A stretch of DNA of 64,000 bases from the NCBI RefSeq assembly GCF_003334815.1, contig NZ_QOWO01000018.1; one strand, 5' to 3'. This DNA comes from Escherichia coli. Lineage in GTDB: Bacteria; Pseudomonadota; Gammaproteobacteria; Enterobacterales; Enterobacteriaceae. The notes beneath the pieces are model-generated. The model worked only from the letters and a program-made list of their open reading frames with translations, ran no database searches and was not told where the DNA came from. A program made the position numbers and the translations under genes. Shown here piece after piece: positions 1-39,197 of the stretch; positions within the stretch are counted from its first letter, which is position 1, and every line of letters starts with the position of its first letter.

Positions 1-549
1 ATTTAAAATAAAATCGGTGTGGGCGTCGTCGAGCAAAATACGAAAACAGCTCTCTTCATCGCCCGCAAGGGTAAAGGTTAATTGATACGCCCAGTGGGTA
101 ATCACCGTGCTGCTGTCCAGCTTTAATTTCAGCGCAATACCGGAGGTTTGCAGATTAAATATCAGCGTGCAGATATCCAGCGCGAGTCGGTTCTTTAATC
201 GTGTTTCGGTTTTGGTCGGCAGGCCGTTATGCGCTTTCGCCTCTTCAAGAGACGACTCCAGACCATAAAAATTGCCCAGCAGCATTAACAGCAAGGAGCG
301 ATCAATATCAAACGCCAGATGCCCGACCTGGGAAATCATTAGTTCAGCGTTTTTATTAATAATATCCATTTCGCAGCCAATCTTTTTTAAGGTGATATTG
401 CTGCGATGCTTTTTGAGAAAGTAGCTGCCCAGATGCGAATCAATCACGTCAAAATTCCCCGTAAACAGGGTCGGCAGGTGATGGTAGGGGCGTCCGAGCC
501 GATTACCTTCTAATTTAAAGATGCCTGGCGTTTTACTGTACTTCAGCAT
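1..549 (-). CDS. lfiM: Flagellar motor switch protein FliM homolog (lateral flagellar type), N-terminal part only; gene continues past window start
   Basis: Minus-strand frame open from ATG at 549 to the window edge (183 codons, translated by hand); segment FYGLESSLEEAKAHNGLPTKTETRLKNRLAL resembles the FliM region FGGDGRFPTKVEGREFTHTEQRV; divergent from lafK as in lateral flagellar loci. Confidence 0.55.
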   Translation of the reverse strand, partial: MLKYSKTPGIFKLEGNRLGRPYHHLPTLFTGNFDVIDSHLGSYFLKKHRSNITLKKIGCEMDIINKNAELMISQVGHLAFDIDRSLLLMLLGNFYGLESSLEEAKAHNGLPTKTETRLKNRLALDICTLIFNLQTSGIALKLKLDSSTVITHWAYQLTFTLAGDEESCFRILLDDAHTDFILN

Positions 550-726
550 GGCTTACTTTCTCTGCTGTAATGGTATGGGCGATTTTGTGCACGCAAATCC
601 GGCAGTGACACAAGGTGAGGTATTAAATAGAGGGGGAGTGAAAGGGGCAAATTATTAATAGGATGAAAAAATAATTAAATTATTAAAGGGCTAGATATCA
701 GGCATCGTCATAACACATTGCACGAA

Positions 727-814
<88 letters not shown>

Positions 815-935
815 GATAACTCATTGTTTACCATAAAATAATATTTTTATTATCGTTTAATTCGAACTTGTTAATCCCGCCGGTGATACGCTTCACAATA
901 TCCTGTTTTCTGTCGCTACTGATATCGTTCACCCT

Positions 936-1922
936 ATGTCTGAACTTATTGCAACTGCCGCTTCCAGCATTAACGCTTTTACTCTGGCAAAGCGTGTCGC
1001 CGCATTTAACGTGCCGGTGCTCATTCAGGGCGAAACCGGCGCGGGCAAAGAATGCGTGGCGAAATATATTCACACCGTAGCCTTTGGTGAAAATGATAAC
1101 GCGCCCTATATCGGCGTGAACTGCGCAGCGATCCCGGAAAACATGCTGGAAGCTACATTATTTGGCTACGACAAAGGCGCATTTACCGGCGCAATTGCCA
1201 GTGTGCCAGGAAAAATGGAACTAGCGAATAACGGCACCTTATTACTCGATGAAATTGGCGATATGCCGCTGGCGCTACAGGCCAAAATATTACGCGTATT
1301 GCAGGAGCAACAGGTTGAGCGATTAGGCAGCAACCGACAAATTAAACTCAATTTTCGCCTGATTGCCTGCACCAATAAAAACCTTGAACAGGAAGTGGCT
1401 GCCGGGCGTTTTCGTGAAGATCTCTATTATCGTCTGGCGGTTATTCCTATTACCATGCCGCCACTGCGTGAACGTCTGAACGATATTATTCCGCTGGCAG
1501 AGTCATTTATAAAAAAGTACTCCACGGTGCTGGTGAAAAATATCACCCTTTCAGAATCTACCCGCCGGGCGCTGCTCAATTACCGCTGGCCCGGCAACGT
1601 GCGCCAGCTGGAGAACGCCATTCAGCGGGGAATGATTTTAAATCGCGACGGCGTGATTTACCCGGATGCCTTAGGCCTGCCGGAAACGGACGTTGCCGAC
1701 CGCAGCGAACTGCAATGGCCTGTTCAGCCCGCCGTCCACATTGCCGAAACCAGCGATTTGGGCCAGCACGGACGAAGCGCCCAGTATCAATATATCGCTG
1801 ACCTGATGCGTAAATATCAGGGCAACCGCAGCAAAATCGCCGACCTGTTAGGCATTACCCCGCGCGCACTGCGCTATCGACTGGCCTCCATGCGCAAGCA
1901 AGGTATCGAAGTTTTCTCCTGA
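936..1922 (+). CDS. lafK: Sigma-54-dependent transcriptional activator (AAA+ enhancer-binding protein), lacks N-terminal receiver domain
   Basis: Walker A GETGAGKE, GAFTGA loop (YDKGAFTGA), Walker B LLLDEIGDM, C-terminal Fis-type HTH (ADLLGITPRALRYRL); ATG at 936 with in-frame TAA at 858-860 upstream. Confidence 0.8.
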   Translation: MSELIATAASSINAFTLAKRVAAFNVPVLIQGETGAGKECVAKYIHTVAFGENDNAPYIGVNCAAIPENMLEATLFGYDKGAFTGAIASVPGKMELANNGTLLLDEIGDMPLALQAKILRVLQEQQVERLGSNRQIKLNFRLIACTNKNLEQEVAAGRFREDLYYRLAVIPITMPPLRERLNDIIPLAESFIKKYSTVLVKNITLSESTRRALLNYRWPGNVRQLENAIQRGMILNRDGVIYPDALGLPETDVADRSELQWPVQPAVHIAETSDLGQHGRSAQYQYIADLMRKYQGNRSKIADLLGITPRALRYRLASMRKQGIEVFS

Positions 1923-1936
1923 CCCGGAAGTTAAAA

Positions 1937-2278
1937 ATGAGCATTACCACAATCAACAGCACCATGCAGGCGCAAATCATGCAGGACGTGCAGCGGATGC
2001 AGGCCAACGCCCAGGCGCCGGTGCTACCCGCCATGACCTTCAGTTCCACAGACCCGGACGTGTCGTTTAACCGCATTATGTACGGCGCGCTTGGTCATGT
2101 TGATCAGTTCCAGCAGGTGGCGGAGCAGCAGCAAACGGCTGTCGACACGGGCAAAAGTGATGACCTGGCAGGTGCGATGATCGCCAGCCAGCAGGCGTCG
2201 CTCTCTTTCTCCGCGCTGGTGCAGGTGCGCAATAAAATCGCCACCGGGTTTAACGACCTGATGAGTATGTCGATCTAA
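1937..2278 (+). CDS. lfiE: Flagellar hook-basal body complex protein FliE homolog
   Basis: 113 aa, position between the sigma-54 activator and fliF; C-terminal ...RNKIATGFNDLMSMSI resembles FliE. Confidence 0.7.
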   Translation: MSITTINSTMQAQIMQDVQRMQANAQAPVLPAMTFSSTDPDVSFNRIMYGALGHVDQFQQVAEQQQTAVDTGKSDDLAGAMIASQQASLSFSALVQVRNKIATGFNDLMSMSI

Positions 2279-2282
2279 CCCT

Positions 2283-3929
2283 ATGAATGCACAAATAAAG
2301 AAGTTAACCCAGGCGTTTCCGGCGTTTCGACTGCGTCTCGTAGATAACAAACGCTGGGCGTTGATGGCGGGAGTGGGGCTTGCCGTGGCGGCGACGGCGA
2401 TTATCGTCAGCGTGCTGTGGACCGGTAATCGCGGCTACGTTTCGCTCTACGGACGCCAGGAAAATCTGCCCGTGTCGCAGATTGTCACGGTGCTGGACGG
2501 CGAAAAGCTCAGCTACCGCATCGACCCGCAGAGCGGGCAGATTCTGGTGCCGGAAGATGAACTGTCGAAAACGCGTATGACCCTTGCCGCGAAAGGCGTG
2601 CAGGCGATATTGCCCAGCGGCTACGAGCTGATGGACAAAGACGAAGTGCTCGGCAGCAGCCAGTTCGTGCAGAACGTGCGCTATAAACGCAGCCTCGAAG
2701 GGGAGCTGGCGCAGAGCATTATGTCGCTGGACGCGGTGGAGAGCGCGCGGGTGCATCTGGCGCTCAACGAAGAAAGCTCGTTTGTGGTCAGCGATGAGCC
2801 GCAAAACAGCGCCTCGGTGGTGGTGCGTCTGCACTACGGCGCGAAGCTGAATATGGACCAGGTGAACGCCATCGTGCATCTGGTTTCCGGCAGTATTCCG
2901 GGGCTGCAGGCCAGCAAAGTCAGCGTCGTCGATCAGGCGGGAAATCTGCTAACCGACGGCATTGGCGCGGGCGAGGCGGTCTCTGCCGCTACCCGTAAAC
3001 GCGATCAGATCCTCAAAGACATTCAGGACAAAACCCGCGCCAGCGTGGCGAACGTGCTGGATTCGCTGGTCGGCAGCGGGAATTACCGTGTCAGCGTGAT
3101 GCCGGATCTCGACCTCAGCACCATCGACGAAACTCAGGAACACTACGGAGACGCGCCGAAAATAAACCGCGAAGAGAGCGTGCTGGACAGCGACACCAAT
3201 CAGGTGGCGATGGGTGTGCCCGGCTCTCTCAGCAACCGTCCGCCGGTTGCGGCGAATCAGATGACCAACGGCACGGAAGAAAATCGCTCGCCGGAAGCGT
3301 TATCCAAACACAGCGAAAGCAAGCGCGATTACTCTTACGACCGCAGCGTCCAGCATATTCAGCATCCCGGCTTTGCGGTGAAACGCCTCAACGTGGCGGT
3401 GGTGCTCAATCAAAACGCCCCGGCGCTGAAAAACTGGAAGCCGGAACAGACCACGCAGCTTACCGCGTTGCTGAACAATGCCGCCGGGATCGACGCGCAA
3501 CGTGGAGATAACCTGACGCTTTCACTGCTTAACTTTGTCCCGCAGGTGGTCCCGGTCGAACCGGTGATCCCGCTGTGGAAAGATGACAGCGTGCTGGCCT
3601 GGGTGCGGCTGATTGGCTGCGGCCTGCTGGCGCTGTTGTTGCTGTTCTTTGTGGTGCGCCCGGTAATGAAACGCCTGACGGCGGTGCGTGCGCCGGTTAT
3701 CACACCAGAACCGGAAGCTGTCAGCGAACCGTGGATCGCTATGCCGGAAGAGGAGCGCAAAAACGTCGATCTGCCGTCGCTGCCCGGCGATGACAGCCTG
3801 CCTTCGCAGAGTTCCGGCCTCGAAGTGAAACTCGAGTTCCTGCAAAAACTGGCCATGAGCGACACCGATCGCGTAGCCGAAGTTCTCAGACAATGGATCA
3901 CCAGCAATGAGCGAATTGACAACAAATAA
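2283..3929 (+). CDS. lfiF: Flagellar MS-ring protein FliF homolog
   Basis: 548 aa, N-terminal TM segment, FliF-like length and synteny fliE-fliF-fliG. Confidence 0.85.
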   Translation: MNAQIKKLTQAFPAFRLRLVDNKRWALMAGVGLAVAATAIIVSVLWTGNRGYVSLYGRQENLPVSQIVTVLDGEKLSYRIDPQSGQILVPEDELSKTRMTLAAKGVQAILPSGYELMDKDEVLGSSQFVQNVRYKRSLEGELAQSIMSLDAVESARVHLALNEESSFVVSDEPQNSASVVVRLHYGAKLNMDQVNAIVHLVSGSIPGLQASKVSVVDQAGNLLTDGIGAGEAVSAATRKRDQILKDIQDKTRASVANVLDSLVGSGNYRVSVMPDLDLSTIDETQEHYGDAPKINREESVLDSDTNQVAMGVPGSLSNRPPVAANQMTNGTEENRSPEALSKHSESKRDYSYDRSVQHIQHPGFAVKRLNVAVVLNQNAPALKNWKPEQTTQLTALLNNAAGIDAQRGDNLTLSLLNFVPQVVPVEPVIPLWKDDSVLAWVRLIGCGLLALLLLFFVVRPVMKRLTAVRAPVITPEPEAVSEPWIAMPEEERKNVDLPSLPGDDSLPSQSSGLEVKLEFLQKLAMSDTDRVAEVLRQWITSNERIDNK

Positions 3930-31329: not shown

Positions 31330-32253
31330 ATGAGAAAGACGGGTAACCGCCGCGATCGTGGGGCAAAAACCACCATCGTCCGGCGGCAGATCAAAAAGAA
31401 TCATGCCGGGCACCACGGCGGGGCGTGGAAGGTGGCGTTCGCCGACTTTACTTTGGCAATGATGGCGCTGTTTATGACGCTGTGGATTGTCAACAGCGTC
31501 AGTAAATCCGAGCGTGAAAGCATTATCGCCGCGCTGCACGGGCAGTCGATTTTTAACGGTGGTGGGCTGTCGCCGTTAAATAAAATCAGCCCGTCTCATC
31601 CGCCAAAACCTGCCACCGTGGCGGTGCCGGAAGAGACGGAGAAAAAAGCGCGTGATGTGAATGAGAAAACGGCGCTGCTGAAGAAGAAATCCGCCACCGA
31701 GCTTGGTGAGCTGGCAACCAGTATCAACACCATTGCCCGTGATGCGCATATGGAAGCGAATCTGGAGATGGAGATTGTTCCCCAGGGATTACGCGTGCTG
31801 ATTAAAGACGACCAGAACCGCAATATGTTTGAACGCGGCAGCGCGAAGATTATGCCGTTCTTTAAAACGCTGCTGGTGGAGCTCGCGCCAGTGTTCGACT
31901 CGCTCGATAATAAAATTATTATTACCGGGCATACCGATGCGATGGCCTACAAAAACAATATCTACAACAACTGGAACCTTTCGGGTGACCGCGCGCTTTC
32001 GGCTCGTCGGGTGCTGGAAGAGGCCGGAATGCCGGAAGATAAAGTGATGCAGGTAAGCGCAATGGCGGACCAGATGCTGCTGGATTCCAAAAATCCGCAA
32101 AGCGCGGGCAACCGGCGCATTGAGATTATGGTGCTGACCAAAAGTGCGTCCGATACGCTGTATCAATACTTTGGTCAGCATGGGGATAAAGTGGTGCAGC
32201 CGCTGGTGCAAAAGCTGGATAAGCAGCAGGTGCTTTCGCAGCGAACGCGTTAA
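31330..32253 (+). CDS. lafU: Flagellar stator protein MotB homolog with OmpA-like peptidoglycan-binding domain
   Basis: 307 aa from ATG 31330; TM helix WKVAFADFTLAMMALFMTLW with conserved Asp; C-terminal NLSGDRALSARRVL...GNRRIEI OmpA-like motif. Confidence 0.85.
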   Translation: MRKTGNRRDRGAKTTIVRRQIKKNHAGHHGGAWKVAFADFTLAMMALFMTLWIVNSVSKSERESIIAALHGQSIFNGGGLSPLNKISPSHPPKPATVAVPEETEKKARDVNEKTALLKKKSATELGELATSINTIARDAHMEANLEMEIVPQGLRVLIKDDQNRNMFERGSAKIMPFFKTLLVELAPVFDSLDNKIIITGHTDAMAYKNNIYNNWNLSGDRALSARRVLEEAGMPEDKVMQVSAMADQMLLDSKNPQSAGNRRIEIMVLTKSASDTLYQYFGQHGDKVVQPLVQKLDKQQVLSQRTR

Positions 32254-32291
32254 ATGCTGAATCTTTACGCATTTCTCAAACCCTGAAATCA

Positions 32292-32307
32292 CTGTATACT
32301 TTACCAG
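32292..32307 (+). promoter_or_regulatory. LexA (SOS) box CTGTATACTTTACCAG upstream of dinB
   Basis: CTG-N10-CAG palindrome 17 nt upstream of the dinB ATG. Confidence 0.7.
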
Positions 32308-32323
32308 TGTTGAGAGGTGAGCA

Positions 32324-33379
32324 ATGCGTAAAATCATTCATGTGGATATGGACTGCTTTTTCGCCGCAGTGGAGATGCGCGACAATCCCGCCCTGCGCGA
32401 TATCCCTATTGCTATTGGCGGCAGCCGCGAACGTCGGGGGGTGATCAGCACCGCCAATTATCCCGCGCGTAAATTTGGCGTACGTAGCGCTATGCCGACA
32501 GGGATGGCGCTCAAATTATGCCCACATCTCACCTTGCTTCCGGGGCGCTTTGACGCCTACAAAGAAGCCTCAAATCATATCCGTGAAATCTTCTCGCGCT
32601 ACACCTCGCGCATTGAACCGTTGTCACTGGATGAGGCTTATCTCGATGTCACCGATAGCGTCCATTGCCACGGTTCTGCGACCCTCATCGCCCAGGAAAT
32701 CCGCCAGACAATCTTCAACGAGCTGCAACTGACGGCGTCTGCGGGCGTGGCACCAGTAAAGTTTCTCGCCAAAATCGCCTCCGACATGAATAAACCCAAC
32801 GGCCAGTTTGTGATTACGCCGGCAGAAGTTCCGGCATTTTTACAAACCTTACCGCTGGCAAAAATCCCCGGCGTCGGCAAAGTCTCAGCGGCAAAACTGG
32901 AAGCGATGGGGCTGCGGACCTGCGGTGATGTACAAAAGTGTGATCTGGTGATGCTGCTTAAACGCTTTGGCAAATTTGGCCGCATTTTGTGGGAGCGTAG
33001 TCAGGGGATTGACGAACGCGATGTTAACAGCGAACGGTTGCGAAAATCCGTCGGCGTGGAACGCACGATGGCGGAAGATATTCATCACTGGTCTGAATGT
33101 GAAGCGATTATCGAGCGGCTGTATCCGGAACTTGAACGCCGTCTGGCAAAGGTAAAACCTGATTTACTGATTGCTCGCCAGGGGGTGAAATTAAAGTTCG
33201 ACGATTTTCAGCAAACCACCCAGGAGCACGTCTGGCCGCGGCTGAATAAAGCTGATCTAATCGCCACCGCGCGTAAAACCTGGGATGAACGCCGCGGCGG
33301 GCGCGGTGTGCGTCTGGTGGGGCTGCATGTGACGTTGCTTGACCCGCAAATGGAAAGACAACTGGTGCTGGGATTATGA
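32324..33379 (+). CDS. dinB: DNA polymerase IV (Y-family translesion polymerase)
   Basis: 351 aa; [33 protein letters not shown] hallmark N-terminus. Confidence 0.95.
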
Positions 33380-33430
33380 TGTATACTATTATGTATATTC
33401 TGGTGTGCATTATTATGAGGGTATCACTGT

Positions 33431-33724
33431 ATGCATCGAATTCTCGCTGAAAAATCGGTCAATATCACTGAGTTACGTAAAAACCCAGCTAAATACTTTA
33501 TTGATCAACCGGTTGCGGTTCTTTCTAATAATCGCCCCGCAGGATATCTCTTAAGTGCCAGCGCATTCGAAGCGTTAATGGACATGCTTGCTGAACAAGA
33601 GGAGAAAAAGCCCATAAAGGCGCGCTTCCGTCCAAGTGCTGCAAGATTAGAGGAAATTACACGCCGCGCTGAACAATATCTTAATGATATGACGGATGAT
33701 GATTTCAATGACTTTAAGGAATAA
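33431..33724 (+). CDS. yafN: Antitoxin YafN (Phd/YefM-like)
   Basis: 97 aa, matches recalled YafN; immediately upstream of yafO. Confidence 0.9.
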   Translation: MHRILAEKSVNITELRKNPAKYFIDQPVAVLSNNRPAGYLLSASAFEALMDMLAEQEEKKPIKARFRPSAARLEEITRRAEQYLNDMTDDDFNDFKE

Positions 33725-33726
33725 GG

Positions 33727-34125
33727 ATGCGGGTATTCAAAACAAAACTTATTCGCCTGCAACTTACAGCAGAGGAACTTGATGCGTTAACGGCGGATTT
33801 TATTTCCTATAAGCGTGACGGTGTTTTGCCAGATATATTTGGTCGCGATGCACTCTACGACGACTCCTTTACCTGGCCATTAATCAAATTTGAGCGAGTT
33901 GCTCATATTCATCTGGCAAATGAGAATAATCCATTTCCGCCACAGTTGCGCCAATTCAGCAGAACGAATGACGAAGCGCATTTGGTATATTGTCAGGGGG
34001 CGTTTGATGAGCAAGCATGGTTGCTCATTGCCATTCTGAAACCTGAACCTCATAAACTGGCTCGAGATAACAACCAAATGCATAAAATTGGGAAAATGGC
34101 AGAAGCGTTTCGCATGCGTTTTTGA
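33727..34125 (+). CDS. yafO: Toxin YafO (ribosome-dependent mRNA interferase)
   Basis: 132 aa, conserved dinB-yafN-yafO-yafP operon context. Confidence 0.85.
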   Translation: MRVFKTKLIRLQLTAEELDALTADFISYKRDGVLPDIFGRDALYDDSFTWPLIKFERVAHIHLANENNPFPPQLRQFSRTNDEAHLVYCQGAFDEQAWLLIAILKPEPHKLARDNNQMHKIGKMAEAFRMRF

Positions 34126-34134
34126 ATTTATATT

Positions 34135-34587
34135 ATGAATAACATACAAATAAGAAACTATCAGCCTGGCGATTTTCAGCAACTATGCGCTATTTTCATT
34201 AGAGCGGTTACGATGACCGCCAGTCAGCATTATTCACCACAACAAATTTCCGCCTGGGCGCAGATTGACGAATCTCGCTGGAAGGAGAAACTCGCGAAAT
34301 CACAAGTGTGGGTTGCGATCATTAATGCACAACCGGTTGGTTTTATTTCCCGCATTGAACATTATATCGATATGTTATTTGTTGACCCTGAATACACCCG
34401 CCGTGGGGTTGCCAGCGCTTTGTTAAAACCTTTGATTAAGTCTGAATCCGAACTTACGGTGGACGCAAGCATAACCGCAAAACCCTTTTTTGAACGTTAT
34501 GGTTTTCAGACAGTTAAGCAGCAGCGCGTTGAATGCCGGGGAGCGTGGTTTACTAATTTTTATATGCGATATAAACCGCAACATTAA
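34135..34587 (+). CDS. yafP: GNAT-family N-acetyltransferase YafP
   Basis: 150 aa; acetyl-CoA binding motif region ...RRGVASALLKPL... Confidence 0.85.
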   Translation: MNNIQIRNYQPGDFQQLCAIFIRAVTMTASQHYSPQQISAWAQIDESRWKEKLAKSQVWVAIINAQPVGFISRIEHYIDMLFVDPEYTRRGVASALLKPLIKSESELTVDASITAKPFFERYGFQTVKQQRVECRGAWFTNFYMRYKPQH

Positions 34588-34777
34588 ATCCAGCTTGCAA
34601 TGAAAATAACGCCCGCCTGGTATGTGCGCGTTTTCTGATTCCACAAACTGCAAGGAGGTAAATCATGACAAATCCTTTATCAATGACTCTTTGCAGACCT
34701 TTCCAGGATTAATTCTTTTTTTCTTGCCCTGGATTCGTCTGCCATTTCCTGATTTTTATATTTATATACTCTAAATA

Positions 34778-34892
34778 ATTCGAGTTGCAGGAAGGCGACA
34801 AGCGAGTGAATCGCCAGGAGCTTACATAAGTAAGTGACTGGGGTGAACGAACGCAGTCGCAGTACATGCAACTTGAAGTATGACGAGTATAA
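34778..34892. repeat. ERIC/IRU element
   Basis: Contains gtgaatcgccaggagcttacataagtaagtgactggggtgaacgaacgcagtcgcagtacatgcaacttgaagtatgacgagtat, matching the ERIC core. Confidence 0.65.
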
Positions 34893-35159
34893 ATGGAATG
34901 GTACATGGGCAAATATATTCGTCCCTTATCCGATGCGGTATTTACCATCGCATCTGATGACCTGTGGATCGAGAGTTTAGCGATCCAACAATTACACACC
35001 ACGGCAAATTTACCCAACATGCAGCGCGTAGTGGGGATGCCAGATTTACACCCCGGACGCGGCTACCCGATTGGCGCAGCGTTCTTCTCTGTTGGTCGTT
35101 TTTACCCGGCAAGACGTCGCGGTAACGGTGCTGGAAACAGAAACGGGCCGCTACTCTGA
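34893..35159 (+). pseudogene. ykfJ: rtcB-like RNA ligase remnant (N-terminal fragment, ykfJ-like)
   Basis: 88-codon ORF with [18 protein letters not shown] (RtcB metal-site motif), then loss of frame; overlaps prfH. Confidence 0.55.
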
Positions 35160-35628
35160 CACACTGCGTTCGGCGCTGGTTTCTCTCGATGGCGATAACG
35201 CATGGGCATTAAGCGAAAGCTGGTGTGGCACTATTCAGTGGATTTGTCCGAGTCCGTATCGGCCTCATCATGGGCGCAAAAACTGGTTTCTGGGCATTGG
35301 GCGTTTTACCGCTGATGAGCAGGAACAATCGGATGCAATCCGTTATGAGACGCTGCGTTCGTCGGGGCCGGGCGGTCAACATGTCAATAAAACCGACTCG
35401 GCGGTACGCGCCACGCATTTGGCATCCGGTATTAGCGTGAAGGTTCAGTCAGAGCGTAGTCAGCATGCTAACAAGCGGCTGGCACGATTGCTGATTGCCT
35501 GGAAGCTGGAGCAACAGCAACAGGAAAATAGCGCGGCGCTGAAATCGCAGCGGCGAATGTTCCATCACCAGATTGAACGTGGCAACCCGCGACGGACATT
35601 TACAGGGATGGCTTTTATCGAAGGATAA
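35071..35628 (+). pseudogene. prfH: Peptide chain release factor homolog RF-H, N-terminally truncated (TTG start in ORF track)
   Basis: GGQ motif [11 protein letters not shown]; begins at a TTG inside the rtcB remnant. Confidence 0.65.
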
Positions 35629-35640
35629 TGAAGGATGAAA

Positions 35641-35672
35641 CTGCCGGAAGGCGATTAAACGCCATCCGGCAG
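35641..35672. terminator. Hairpin between convergent prfH and pepD (probable bidirectional terminator)
   Basis: ctgccggaaggcg-attaaa-cgccatccggcag, 13-bp stem with one mismatch. Confidence 0.45.
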
Positions 35673-35684
35673 CAAATCAAATAA

Positions 35685-37142
35685 TTACTTCGCCGGAATT
35701 TCTTTCAGCAGTTCAGTCAGCAGTGTCCAGTAATGACCTACGCTTTCGATGTGAACTTGCTCATCCGGAGAGTGTGGACCGGTGATAGTTGGCCCGATAG
35801 AAACCATGTCCATTTCCGGATACGGTTTTTTGAACAGACCACATTCCAGGCCCGCGTGGATAATCTGGATGTTCGGCGTCTTGTTGAACAGGCGCTGATA
35901 GGTTTCACGTACCAGATGCATCACCGGAGAATTAGCGTCCGGCTGCCAGCCAGGATATGCGCCTTTCGCTTCGGTTTTCGCGCCAGCCAGTTTACCCAGC
36001 GAATCCAGCATGCTCACCACGTAGTCTTTACCGCTGTCGATCAGTGAACGGATCAGGCAGTGAATTTCTACGTTATTGTCAGTCATGGTCACCACACCGA
36101 CGTTCAGGGAGGTTTCAACCACACCTTTGGCTACATCGGAGTTACGAATCACACCGTTCGGGGTGGCGTTCAGCAGACGAATAAAGGTATCGCGAGATTT
36201 CGCAATCAGGGCAGCTTTATCGTTCGCTACAGAGTCCAGCAACAAGGCCAGATTTTTCTCTTTTTCTGCCAGCTCGTTTTTCAGGATCTCCTGATAGGTA
36301 TTCACCAGAGATTTCAGGACGTCGACTTTATCAGCTGCGACAGCAATGGTCGCAAAGGCTTCACGCGGGATGGCGTTACGCAGTGTGCCGCCGTTGAAAT
36401 CGATAAGGCGCAGATCCAGTTCTTCCGCATGACCCGCCAGGAAGCGCACCAGCAGTTTGTTGGCATTACCCAGCCCAACGTGGATTTCCCCGCCGGAGTG
36501 ACCGCCTTTCAGACCTTTTAAGGTTAACTTGAAGGTTTCAAAACCAGCTGGAACCGCTTCACGATCTAAATGCAGGTTGGAGGTGAAGTCGATACCCCCC
36601 GCACAACCCATGTAGATTTCACCTTCTTCTTCGGAGTCGGTGTTAATCAGAATATCAGCCTGCAACCAGTTGCCCTGTAAGCCGAACGCACCGTCCATAC
36701 CGGCTTCTTCGGTCATGGTCAGCAGCACTTCCAGCGGGCCGTGAACCACGTTTTCGTCAGCCAGAACCGCCAGCGCAGAGGCCATACCAATGCCGTTATC
36801 CGCACCCAGCGTGGTGCCGCGCGCTTTAACCCATTCGCCATCAATATAAGGCTGGATAGGATCTTTCGTGAAGTCATGCACGGTGTCGTTATTTTTCTGC
36901 GGCACCATATCGAGGTGGGCCTGTAAGACGACCGGTTTACGATTTTCCATACCTGCGGTAGCAGGTTTACGAATCAGGATATTACCTACCTGATCGCGTT
37001 CGACATGGAAACCTTTCTCTTTTGCCCAACCAACAATGTATTCAGCGAGTTGCTCTTCATGATAGGACGGGTGAGGAATAGAACAGATTTTGGCAAAAAT
37101 ATCCCACAGCGGCTGTGGAGATAATTGAGACAGTTCAGACAC
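35685..37142 (-). CDS. pepD: Cytosol non-specific dipeptidase (aminoacyl-histidine dipeptidase)
   Basis: 485 aa; matches recalled PepD N-terminus MSELSQLSPQPLWDIFAKICSIPHPSYHEE. Confidence 0.95.
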   Translation of the reverse strand: MSELSQLSPQPLWDIFAKICSIPHPSYHEEQLAEYIVGWAKEKGFHVERDQVGNILIRKPATAGMENRKPVVLQAHLDMVPQKNNDTVHDFTKDPIQPYIDGEWVKARGTTLGADNGIGMASALAVLADENVVHGPLEVLLTMTEEAGMDGAFGLQGNWLQADILINTDSEEEGEIYMGCAGGIDFTSNLHLDREAVPAGFETFKLTLKGLKGGHSGGEIHVGLGNANKLLVRFLAGHAEELDLRLIDFNGGTLRNAIPREAFATIAVAADKVDVLKSLVNTYQEILKNELAEKEKNLALLLDSVANDKAALIAKSRDTFIRLLNATPNGVIRNSDVAKGVVETSLNVGVVTMTDNNVEIHCLIRSLIDSGKDYVVSMLDSLGKLAGAKTEAKGAYPGWQPDANSPVMHLVRETYQRLFNKTPNIQIIHAGLECGLFKKPYPEMDMVSIGPTITGPHSPDEQVHIESVGHYWTLLTELLKEIPAK

Positions 37143-37402
37143 GTTAAGTCTCCTTGTCGATCACCCGCAAAACAGTATTGCAGGTCACAGGGTTAGCAGA
37201 AAATGTTGTCAACACAAGACAGGCTTGCGAGATATGTTTGAGAATACCACTTTATCCCGCGTCAGGGAGAGGCAGTGCGTAAAAAGACGCGGACTCATGT
37301 GAAATACTGGTTTTTAGTGCGCCAGATCTCTATAATCTCGCGCAACCTATTTTCCCCTCGAACACTTTTTAAGCCGTAGATAAACAGGCTGGGACACTTC
37401 AC

Positions 37403-37861
37403 ATGAGCGAAAAATACATCGTCACCTGGGACATGTTGCAGATCCATGCACGTAAACTCGCAAGCCGACTGATGCCTTCTGAACAATGGAAAGGCATTAT
37501 TGCCGTAAGCCGTGGCGGTCTGGTACCGGGTGCGTTACTGGCGCGTGAACTGGGTATTCGTCATGTCGATACCGTTTGTATTTCCAGCTACGATCACGAC
37601 AACCAGCGCGAGCTTAAAGTGCTGAAACGCGCAGAAGGCGATGGCGAAGGCTTCATCGTTATTGATGACCTGGTGGATACCGGTGGTACTGCGGTTGCGA
37701 TTCGTGAAATGTATCCAAAAGCGCACTTTGTCACCATCTTCGCAAAACCGGCTGGTCGTCCGCTGGTTGATGACTATGTTGTTGATATCCCGCAAGATAC
37801 CTGGATTGAACAGCCGTGGGATATGGGCGTCGTATTCGTCCCGCCAATCTCCGGTCGCTAA
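37403..37861 (+). CDS. gpt: Xanthine-guanine phosphoribosyltransferase
   Basis: 152 aa; [20 protein letters not shown]..., PRPP-binding [11 protein letters not shown]. Confidence 0.95.
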
Positions 37862-37952
37862 TCTTTTCAACGCCTGGCACTGCCGGGCGTTGTTCTTTTT
37901 AACTTCAGGCGGGTTACAATAGTTTCCAGTAAGTATTCTGGAGGCTGCATCC

Positions 37953-39197
37953 ATGACACAGGCAAACCTGAGCGAAACCCTGTTCAAACCCCGCTTTAAA
38001 CATCCTGAAACCTCGACGCTAGTCCGCCGCTTTAATCACGGCGCACAACCGCCTGTGCAGTCGGCCCTTGATGGTAAAACCATCCCTCACTGGTATCGCA
38101 TGATTAACCGTCTGATGTGGATCTGGCGCGGCATTGACCCACGCGAAATCCTCGACGTCCAGGCACGTATTGTGATGAGCGATGCCGAACGTACCGACGA
38201 TGATTTATACGATACGGTGATTGGCTACCGTGGCGGCAACTGGATTTATGAGTGGGCCACCCAGGCGATGGTGTGGCAACAAAAAGCCTGTGCGGAAGAC
38301 GATCCGCAACTCAGTGGTCGTCACTGGCTGCATGCGGCTACGTTGTACAACATTGCCGCCTATCCTCATCTGAAAGGAGATGACCTGGCCGAGCAAGCGC
38401 AGGCTTTGTCAAACCGCGCCTATGAAGAGGCCGCTCAGCGTCTACCGGGCACGATGCGGCAGATGGAGTTTACCGTACCCGGCGGTGCGCCCATCACCGG
38501 CTTTTTGCATATGCCGAAAGGCGATGGCCCGTTCCCGACGGTATTAATGTGTGGTGGTCTGGATGCGATGCAGACGGACTATTACAGCCTGTATGAACGT
38601 TATTTTGCGCCGCGCGGCATTGCGATGCTGACTATTGATATGCCGTCGGTGGGCTTTTCTTCAAAATGGAAGCTCACCCAGGACTCCAGCCTGTTGCATC
38701 AGCACGTCTTAAAGGCGCTGCCTAACGTACCGTGGGTGGATCACACTCGCGTCGCGGCCTTTGGTTTCCGTTTCGGCGCTAACGTTGCCGTGCGTCTGGC
38801 ATACCTTGAATCGCCGCGTCTGAAAGCGGTTGCCTGTCTTGGTCCGGTAGTTCATACCCTGTTGAGTGATTTTAAGTGCCAGCAACAGGTGCCGGAAATG
38901 TATCTTGACGTTCTGGCCAGTCGTTTGGGGATGCATGATGCTTCCGATGAAGCGTTGCGCGTGGAGCTGAATCGCTATTCATTAAAAGTGCAAGGATTGC
39001 TGGGACGTCGCTGCCCAACGCCAATGTTATCAGGCTACTGGAAGAACGATCCGTTCAGCCCGGAAGAGGACTCACGCTTAATCACCTCATCATCTGCTGA
39101 CGGTAAATTATTAGAGATCCCATTTAACCCGGTGTATCGGAATTTTGACAAAGGTCTTCAGGAAATCACCGACTGGATCGAAAAACGCTTGTGTTAA
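37953..39197 (+). CDS. frsA: Esterase FrsA (fermentation/respiration switch protein)
   Basis: 414 aa alpha/beta hydrolase; conserved gpt-frsA-crl context. Confidence 0.9.

Follow-up and report, generated by a model that had tools for sequence, protein, structure and literature searches.

A common deletion allele of the rtcB2-prfH ribosome-repair operon in Escherichia coli

The interval between yafP and pepD in the Escherichia coli DNA analysed here (a stretch of 64,000 nucleotides from contig NZ_QOWO01000018.1 of assembly GCF_003334815.1, hereafter the window) raises the question of what two short, overlapping reading frames at 34893-35628 derive from and whether any of their ancestral activity could survive. 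At intact loci, this site is occupied by the rtcB2-prfH operon. When colicin E3 or CdiA-CT has cleaved 16S rRNA between A1493 and G1494, PrfH binds the ribosome, recognizing its damaged decoding center, and sets the nascent peptide free, after which RtcB2 seals the break in the 16S rRNA on the liberated 30S subunit (Tian et al., 2022; PMC9304027). An initial annotation of the window, made from the sequence, described a decayed rtcB-prfH module inactivated by an internal deletion. The core of that description stands, as one 1,027-bp deletion fuses the RtcB N-terminus to a 5′-truncated prfH and the remnant has been left in place, but two of its details, a retained metal-binding motif and a TTG start for prfH, do not. 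We place at about 95% the probability that 34893-35628 is a non-functional remnant of the rtcB2-prfH operon, produced by one repeat-bounded 1,027-bp deletion, representing a common allele and free of constraint at the protein level.

The region is flanked by yafP, which ends at 34587, and by the convergent pepD on the minus strand (35685-37142). Window positions 31600-38700 are matched exactly by the 7,101-bp locus of K-12 DH10B (L001), for which the RefSeq annotation gives two adjacent plus-strand pseudogenes at the equivalent of window positions 34905-35111 ("RtcB family protein, missing C-terminus") and 35122-35628 ("prfH, peptide chain release factor H, missing N-terminus"). The two reading frames of the initial annotation exist as described in the program-made list of open reading frames, both on the plus strand: a mechanical 88-codon frame at 34893-35159, in which 4 codons precede RtcB2 residues 1-69 and 15 out-of-frame codons lead to a TGA, and a mechanical 185-codon frame at 35071-35628 that contains the prfH remnant. 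The former, or the rtcB2 fragment within it, we take to be the K-12 gene ykfJ, and the prfH remnant presumably corresponds to prfH' of K-12. The name ykfJ is also present in the annotation of O157:H7 Sakai.

Several features of the neighborhood vary among strains. The yafNO toxin-antitoxin pair (yafN and yafO, window 33431-34125) sits between dinB and yafP, is missing from L002, L004, L016, L018, L019 and L022-L024, where dinB directly overlaps yafP, and carries an internal stop in yafO in strain L020; its presence or absence does not follow the deletion status of rtcB2-prfH. On the other side of the module, the gap between prfH and pepD in K-12 spans 56 bp and holds only a hairpin. An inverted-repeat search placed this hairpin at 35641-35672, with 16-nt arms (CTGCCGGAAGGCGATT and AAACGCCATCCGGCAG) that are perfectly adjacent, leaving no loop, and 88% complementary. 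It is probably a shared bidirectional terminator hairpin or a REP-like element, and it was missed by a simple terminator scan because it has no T-run. In three strains with an intact operon, two additional genes lie between prfH and pepD (L020 4306-5113, L021 4306-5113 and L023 4307-5121), one annotated as a "metal-dependent hydrolase" (~170 aa, on the prfH strand) and the other encoding a 93-aa hypothetical protein on the opposite strand, and the final few prfH codons are altered in these strains.

An ERIC/IRU-like element, a 128-bp imperfect palindrome at 34764-34891 with 25-nt terminal inverted repeats (34765-34789 and 34867-34891), ends 1 nt ahead of the ATG at 34893 and 13 nt ahead of the rtcB2 start at 34905, and thus lies in the leader of the module without being part of it. 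A sequence that we take to be that of the ERIC2 PCR primer coincides with 34828-34849 with 1 mismatch. The element is absent from UPEC 536 (L003), and in L002, L005 and L007 its site measures only ~57-65 bp; it also accounts for the multiple places per genome returned by megablast. When 34300-35900 was compared with Rfam families at a permissive threshold, the only results were a sub-threshold match to this element, covering the full length of the Vibrio family V_AS5 (46.5 bits, E = 1.5e-8), and one chance snoRNA match, so that no known RNA gene accounts for the region.

The 5′ part of the remnant encodes the N-terminus of RtcB2. Residues 5-73 of the 88-codon frame correspond to profile positions 1-69 of both NF007153 (E = 7.7e-31) and TIGR03073 (E = 6.2e-29), with scores under the whole-protein cut-offs of each (107.4 vs 407 bits and 101.1 vs 271.8 bits, respectively). 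The homologous start is therefore not the first codon of the frame but the ATG at 34905, four codons inside it, which is profile position 1 and also the start of the RefSeq pseudogene. The fragment (codons 1-69 of 379; plus strand, 34905-35111) is 99.1% identical in nucleotide alignment to L003 3162-3384. Its orthology is also evident from position: it lies directly upstream of prfH, between yafP and pepD, and shares 99% nucleotide identity with the first 207 nt of intact rtcB2. The initial annotation held that the metal-binding motif of RtcB is kept here, and this is not the case. In RtcB of Pyrococcus horikoshii (PhoRtcB), Cys98, His234 and His329 coordinate M1, Asp95, Cys98 and His203 coordinate M2, and the guanylylated nucleophile is His404 (PMC9745838). 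Through alignment of intact RtcB2 to PDB chains, these residues map to D74, C77, H137, H168, H239 and H294 of RtcB2, with D74 and C77 lying within GNDIGCG (residues 72-78) and the nucleophile within SLAHGAGR (residues 291-298), a motif missing from the window. Since the fragment ends at A69, three residues short of GNDIGCG, no catalytic residue survives; the codons for the His nucleophile and for each of the five metal ligands fall in the deleted segment. What is retained is MPDLHPGRG (residues 45-53), a conserved RtcB signature that is not among the metal ligands given in PMC9745838. The N-terminal MPDxHxGxG signature is common to the window fragment, canonical RtcB1 of the rtcBA operon and the archaeal and human RtcB tRNA ligases; unlike canonical RtcB1, the fragment belongs to the RtcB2 subfamily, cluster 2 of Tian et al. 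(PMC9304027), and represents 18% of the protein.

The 3′ part is a prfH gene that has lost its own start and residues 1-30 or 1-32. Codons 34-204 and the TAA stop occupy 35113-35628 on the plus strand, with homology reaching back to codon 31 through the repeat at the junction. Against the PrfH model TIGR03072, the 185-codon frame aligns over profile positions 31-200 of 200 with 277.3 bits, above the equivalog cut-off of 166.65. The remnant is 96.9-98.6% identical to intact prfH in nucleotide alignment and differs at 2 residues from the corresponding part of EcPrfH (PDB 7sa4, chain 8). The GGQ motif for peptidyl-tRNA hydrolysis (PrfH residues 120-122; plus strand, 35371-35379) is retained, as had been noted initially. 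The TTG at 35071, from which prfH had been thought to begin, is a mechanical edge of the reading frame in rtcB-derived sequence: PrfH homology begins only at 35104-35113, and the first 11 codons from the TTG consist of rtcB sequence in a different frame. There is no in-frame ATG for prfH, and no Shine-Dalgarno-like sequence was found ahead of either the TTG at 35071 or the GTG at 35128. A scan of 34500-35800 called neither a sigma-70-like promoter nor a plus-strand terminator, a result that is uninformative about transcription. The rRNA-recognition domain is incomplete as well, as the deleted residues include 9-12. In the cryo-EM structure, one wall of the pocket for the 3′-phosphate end of cleaved A1493 consists of G10-P12 together with the residue 9 main chain (PMC9304027).

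Alignment to the intact loci of JNE181771 (L002) and UPEC 536 (L003), in which rtcB2 (379 aa) and prfH (204 aa) overlap at ATGA (L002 4370-4373, L003 4314-4317), defined the endpoints of the deletion. The distance from the rtcB start to the prfH stop is 724 bp in the window vs 1,751 bp at the intact loci, 1,027 bp being missing; homology on the left extends to 35111, and homology on the right resumes from 35103/35105. Base-by-base alignment places the junction at 35104-35111 on the plus strand, where a single 8-nt sequence survives as a hybrid of two imperfect direct repeats, a left copy in rtcB2 codons 67-69 (ACCCGGCA) and a right copy in prfH codons 31-33 (ACCCGACA). The same junction is found in 13 further sampled genomes (L004-L007 and L009-L017). 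The deletion removed 310 RtcB2 codons (residues 70-379), the overlap of the rtcB stop and the prfH start, and PrfH residues 1-30 (1-32 by the strict breakpoint). The length of the deletion is not divisible by three, and the rtcB frame therefore continues through 15 wrong codons of prfH DNA to a TGA at 35157-35159 (tail and stop, 35112-35159 on the plus strand), which bears out the loss of frame noted at the outset.

This arrangement suggests how the remnant could have arisen. A single 1,027-bp deletion joined rtcB2 codon 69 to prfH codon ~33 out of frame, and its position between imperfect 8-nt direct repeats points to replication slippage or illegitimate recombination as the probable mechanism. 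With all RtcB2 catalytic residues, the translational coupling at ATGA and the N-terminal pocket wall of PrfH lost, neither product is able to function, and the remnant DNA persists because nothing removes it.

Further decay is seen in other strains. A second deletion of ~165 bp within the prfH remnant (equivalent to ~35298-35462), with 4-nt microhomology (L004 2196-2199 and L005 2123-2126), removes the GGQ motif. Of the 14 deletion alleles sampled, 4 (L004, L005, L010 and L016), representing two flanking haplotypes, carry it. As a guess from 5 of 30 evenly spaced rows with 79-85% coverage, something like one sixth of records may carry this second deletion. In strain 99-3311, ISEc20 (IS110-like; L008 1077-2273) splits an otherwise full-length rtcB2 next to an intact prfH, and IS1 is found at the locus in strain EC24. 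These two insertions are independent inactivations.

Selection on the remnant was considered in a small set, chosen by identity rank rather than at random, of 14 alleles with the deletion and 10 in which prfH is intact. Pairwise pN/pS in the prfH remnant is only 0.03-0.17 (pS, 0.07-0.15), even where both members of a pair carry the deletion. These low ratios, at first a hint of purifying selection on the remnant, are not what neutral, clonal decay after one ancient deletion would predict, and all variable sites were therefore tabulated. At least five flank haplotypes are present among the 14 deletion alleles, and most of the polymorphisms in these haplotypes also occur in intact alleles; stretches of synonymous variants are common, for example, to the O157:H7 allele (L006) and the intact-prfH allele of strain 99-3311 (L008). 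Variants private to deletion alleles comprise 10 nonsynonymous and 2 synonymous changes, against a neutral expectation of ~0.76 (p = 0.74), whereas those private to intact alleles comprise 15 nonsynonymous and 41 synonymous changes (p = 1e-14 vs neutral), and the two classes differ from each other (Fisher p = 4e-4). Within prfH, the deletion-private variants number 7 nonsynonymous and 2 synonymous, among them P>L, W>L and an S>P next to GGQ. The shared polymorphism and the private-variant test thus speak against purifying selection on the remnant, whose low pN/pS is explained by variation that is shared with intact alleles and was filtered in intact genes. Judged by these variants, the remnant appears unconstrained and to be drifting neutrally.

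The deletion is not peculiar to this assembly. Of 5,426 complete E. coli genomes, 2,692, O157:H7 Sakai included, match a 120-nt probe spanning the junction over its full length, and 2,715 contain a probe from the deleted interior, so that the deleted and intact classes nearly partition the sample; RefSeq sampling being biased, the finding that about half of the complete genomes carry the deletion is not a population frequency. The identical junction in so many genomes from many laboratories and platforms effectively excludes a collapse in assembly. It is vanishingly improbable that a full-length rtcB2 is really present and that its frame loss is a sequencing or assembly error, as 1,027 bp are physically gone rather than the 1-2 nt of a frame error, and as Baranov et al. 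(2006; PMC1586002) had independently described the deletion in MG1655, W3110 and two O157:H7 strains. The deletion may have arisen once or several times. The junction occurs in three variants, ACCCGGCA in K-12, ACCCGACA in O157:H7 and a common commensal type, and ATCCGGCA, and by flanking SNPs the deletion alleles do not form one clade. It is possible, though on balance doubtful, that the 1,027 bp were lost several times independently in different haplotypes by slippage at the same 8-nt repeats. Each of the three junction variants matches a left- or right-repeat variant found in intact alleles, and the deletion-bearing flank haplotypes, at least five in number, are as near to intact alleles as to one another (e.g., L006 and L008). 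Strain HS, which we take to belong to phylogroup A like the deleted K-12, has an intact operon. However, imperfect 8-nt repeats 1 kb apart are a weak substrate for slippage, and the deletion alleles are almost identical to one another over ~27 nt on the left side of the junction and 50 nt on its right side, barring private changes and repeat positions. The independent second deletion of ~165 bp is also found on two backgrounds, for which frequent recombination is the simpler explanation, and recombination in E. coli erodes linkage over a few hundred bases. We tentatively favor a single old deletion whose flanks were later shuffled by homologous recombination, because recombination is frequent in E. 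coli, the 27-50 nt nearest the junction are uniform and the second deletion is likewise mosaic.

The open prfH frame could also be taken to mean that translation from the GTG at 35128 or the TTG at 35071 still yields a truncated PrfH of 166-185 aa that has kept or gained a function, such as GGQ-dependent release on stalled ribosomes. The frame at 35071-35628 is indeed open, the GGQ motif and the rRNA-contact residues R83, H86, R88, K89, N90 and R189 are kept, pairwise pN/pS between deletion alleles is low, and expression was originally suggested by Pel et al. (1992), as far as a reviewer comment in PMC1586002 relates it. Such a role is nonetheless highly improbable. The candidate starts offer neither an in-frame ATG nor a Shine-Dalgarno-like sequence, and translation is no longer coupled to that of rtcB2. 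The deletion has also taken away the N-terminal strand and residues 9-12 of the pocket wall, and according to Baranov et al. the truncated product would lack a central β-strand of domain 2, which would not fold (PMC1586002). Deletion-private variants in prfH are mostly nonsynonymous and include the S>P next to GGQ, and the motif itself has been lost from 4 of the 14 sampled deletion alleles. In BW25113, wild type and knockouts of the remnant are equally sensitive to colicin E3, which the authors attributed to the truncation, whereas knockouts of the operon in ATCC25922 become sensitive (Maviza et al., 2022; PMC9223846). The near-even split between deleted and intact genomes may also reflect, instead of drift, a maintained polymorphism in which defense against colicin E3 or CdiA ribotoxins is set against some cost of the system, with loss occurring repeatedly through the slippage-prone repeats or through favored recombinational spread; this is improbable, and it is much less likely still that the open prfH frame provides a residual GGQ factor. 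The sequence evidence given here and the published experiments lead back to the reading of a non-functional remnant: the module is dead in this window.

The deletion and the loss of function are already known from published work (Baranov et al., 2006, PMC1586002; Tian et al., 2022, PMC9304027; Maviza et al., 2022, PMC9223846). The window shows no substantive difference from the K-12 pseudogenes ykfJ and prfH' (Pel et al., 1992; Baranov et al., 2006; PMC1586002), sharing the locus and allele, the position between yafP and pepD, the ~1,000-nt deletion and the annotation as pseudogenes. In K-12 MG1655, W3110 and O157:H7, that deletion was described as removing the C-terminal part of the upstream gene and the N-terminal part of the release factor homolog (RFH), which was called a pseudogene (Baranov et al., 2006; PMC1586002). 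Compared with the intact RtcB2-PrfH operon of ATCC25922, CFT073 and UPEC 536 (PMC9304027; PMC9223846; PDB 7sa4), the window DNA occupies the same chromosomal site and is 96-99% identical in the retained parts, but it lacks RtcB2 residues 70-379, and with them the whole active site, along with the stop/start overlap and PrfH residues 1-30 or 1-32, and the protection from colicin E3 seen with the intact operon is absent in K-12 (PMC9223846). To this, the present analysis adds the exact anatomy and size of the junction, its prevalence in 5,426 genomes and the neutral evolution of a remnant that shares polymorphism with intact alleles. The deletion explains the sensitivity of laboratory K-12 to colicin E3-type ribotoxins, whereas strains with an intact operon (ATCC25922 and many B2/UPEC strains) can repair their ribosomes. 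K-12 is thus unrepresentative of E. coli for the RtcB2-PrfH pathway.
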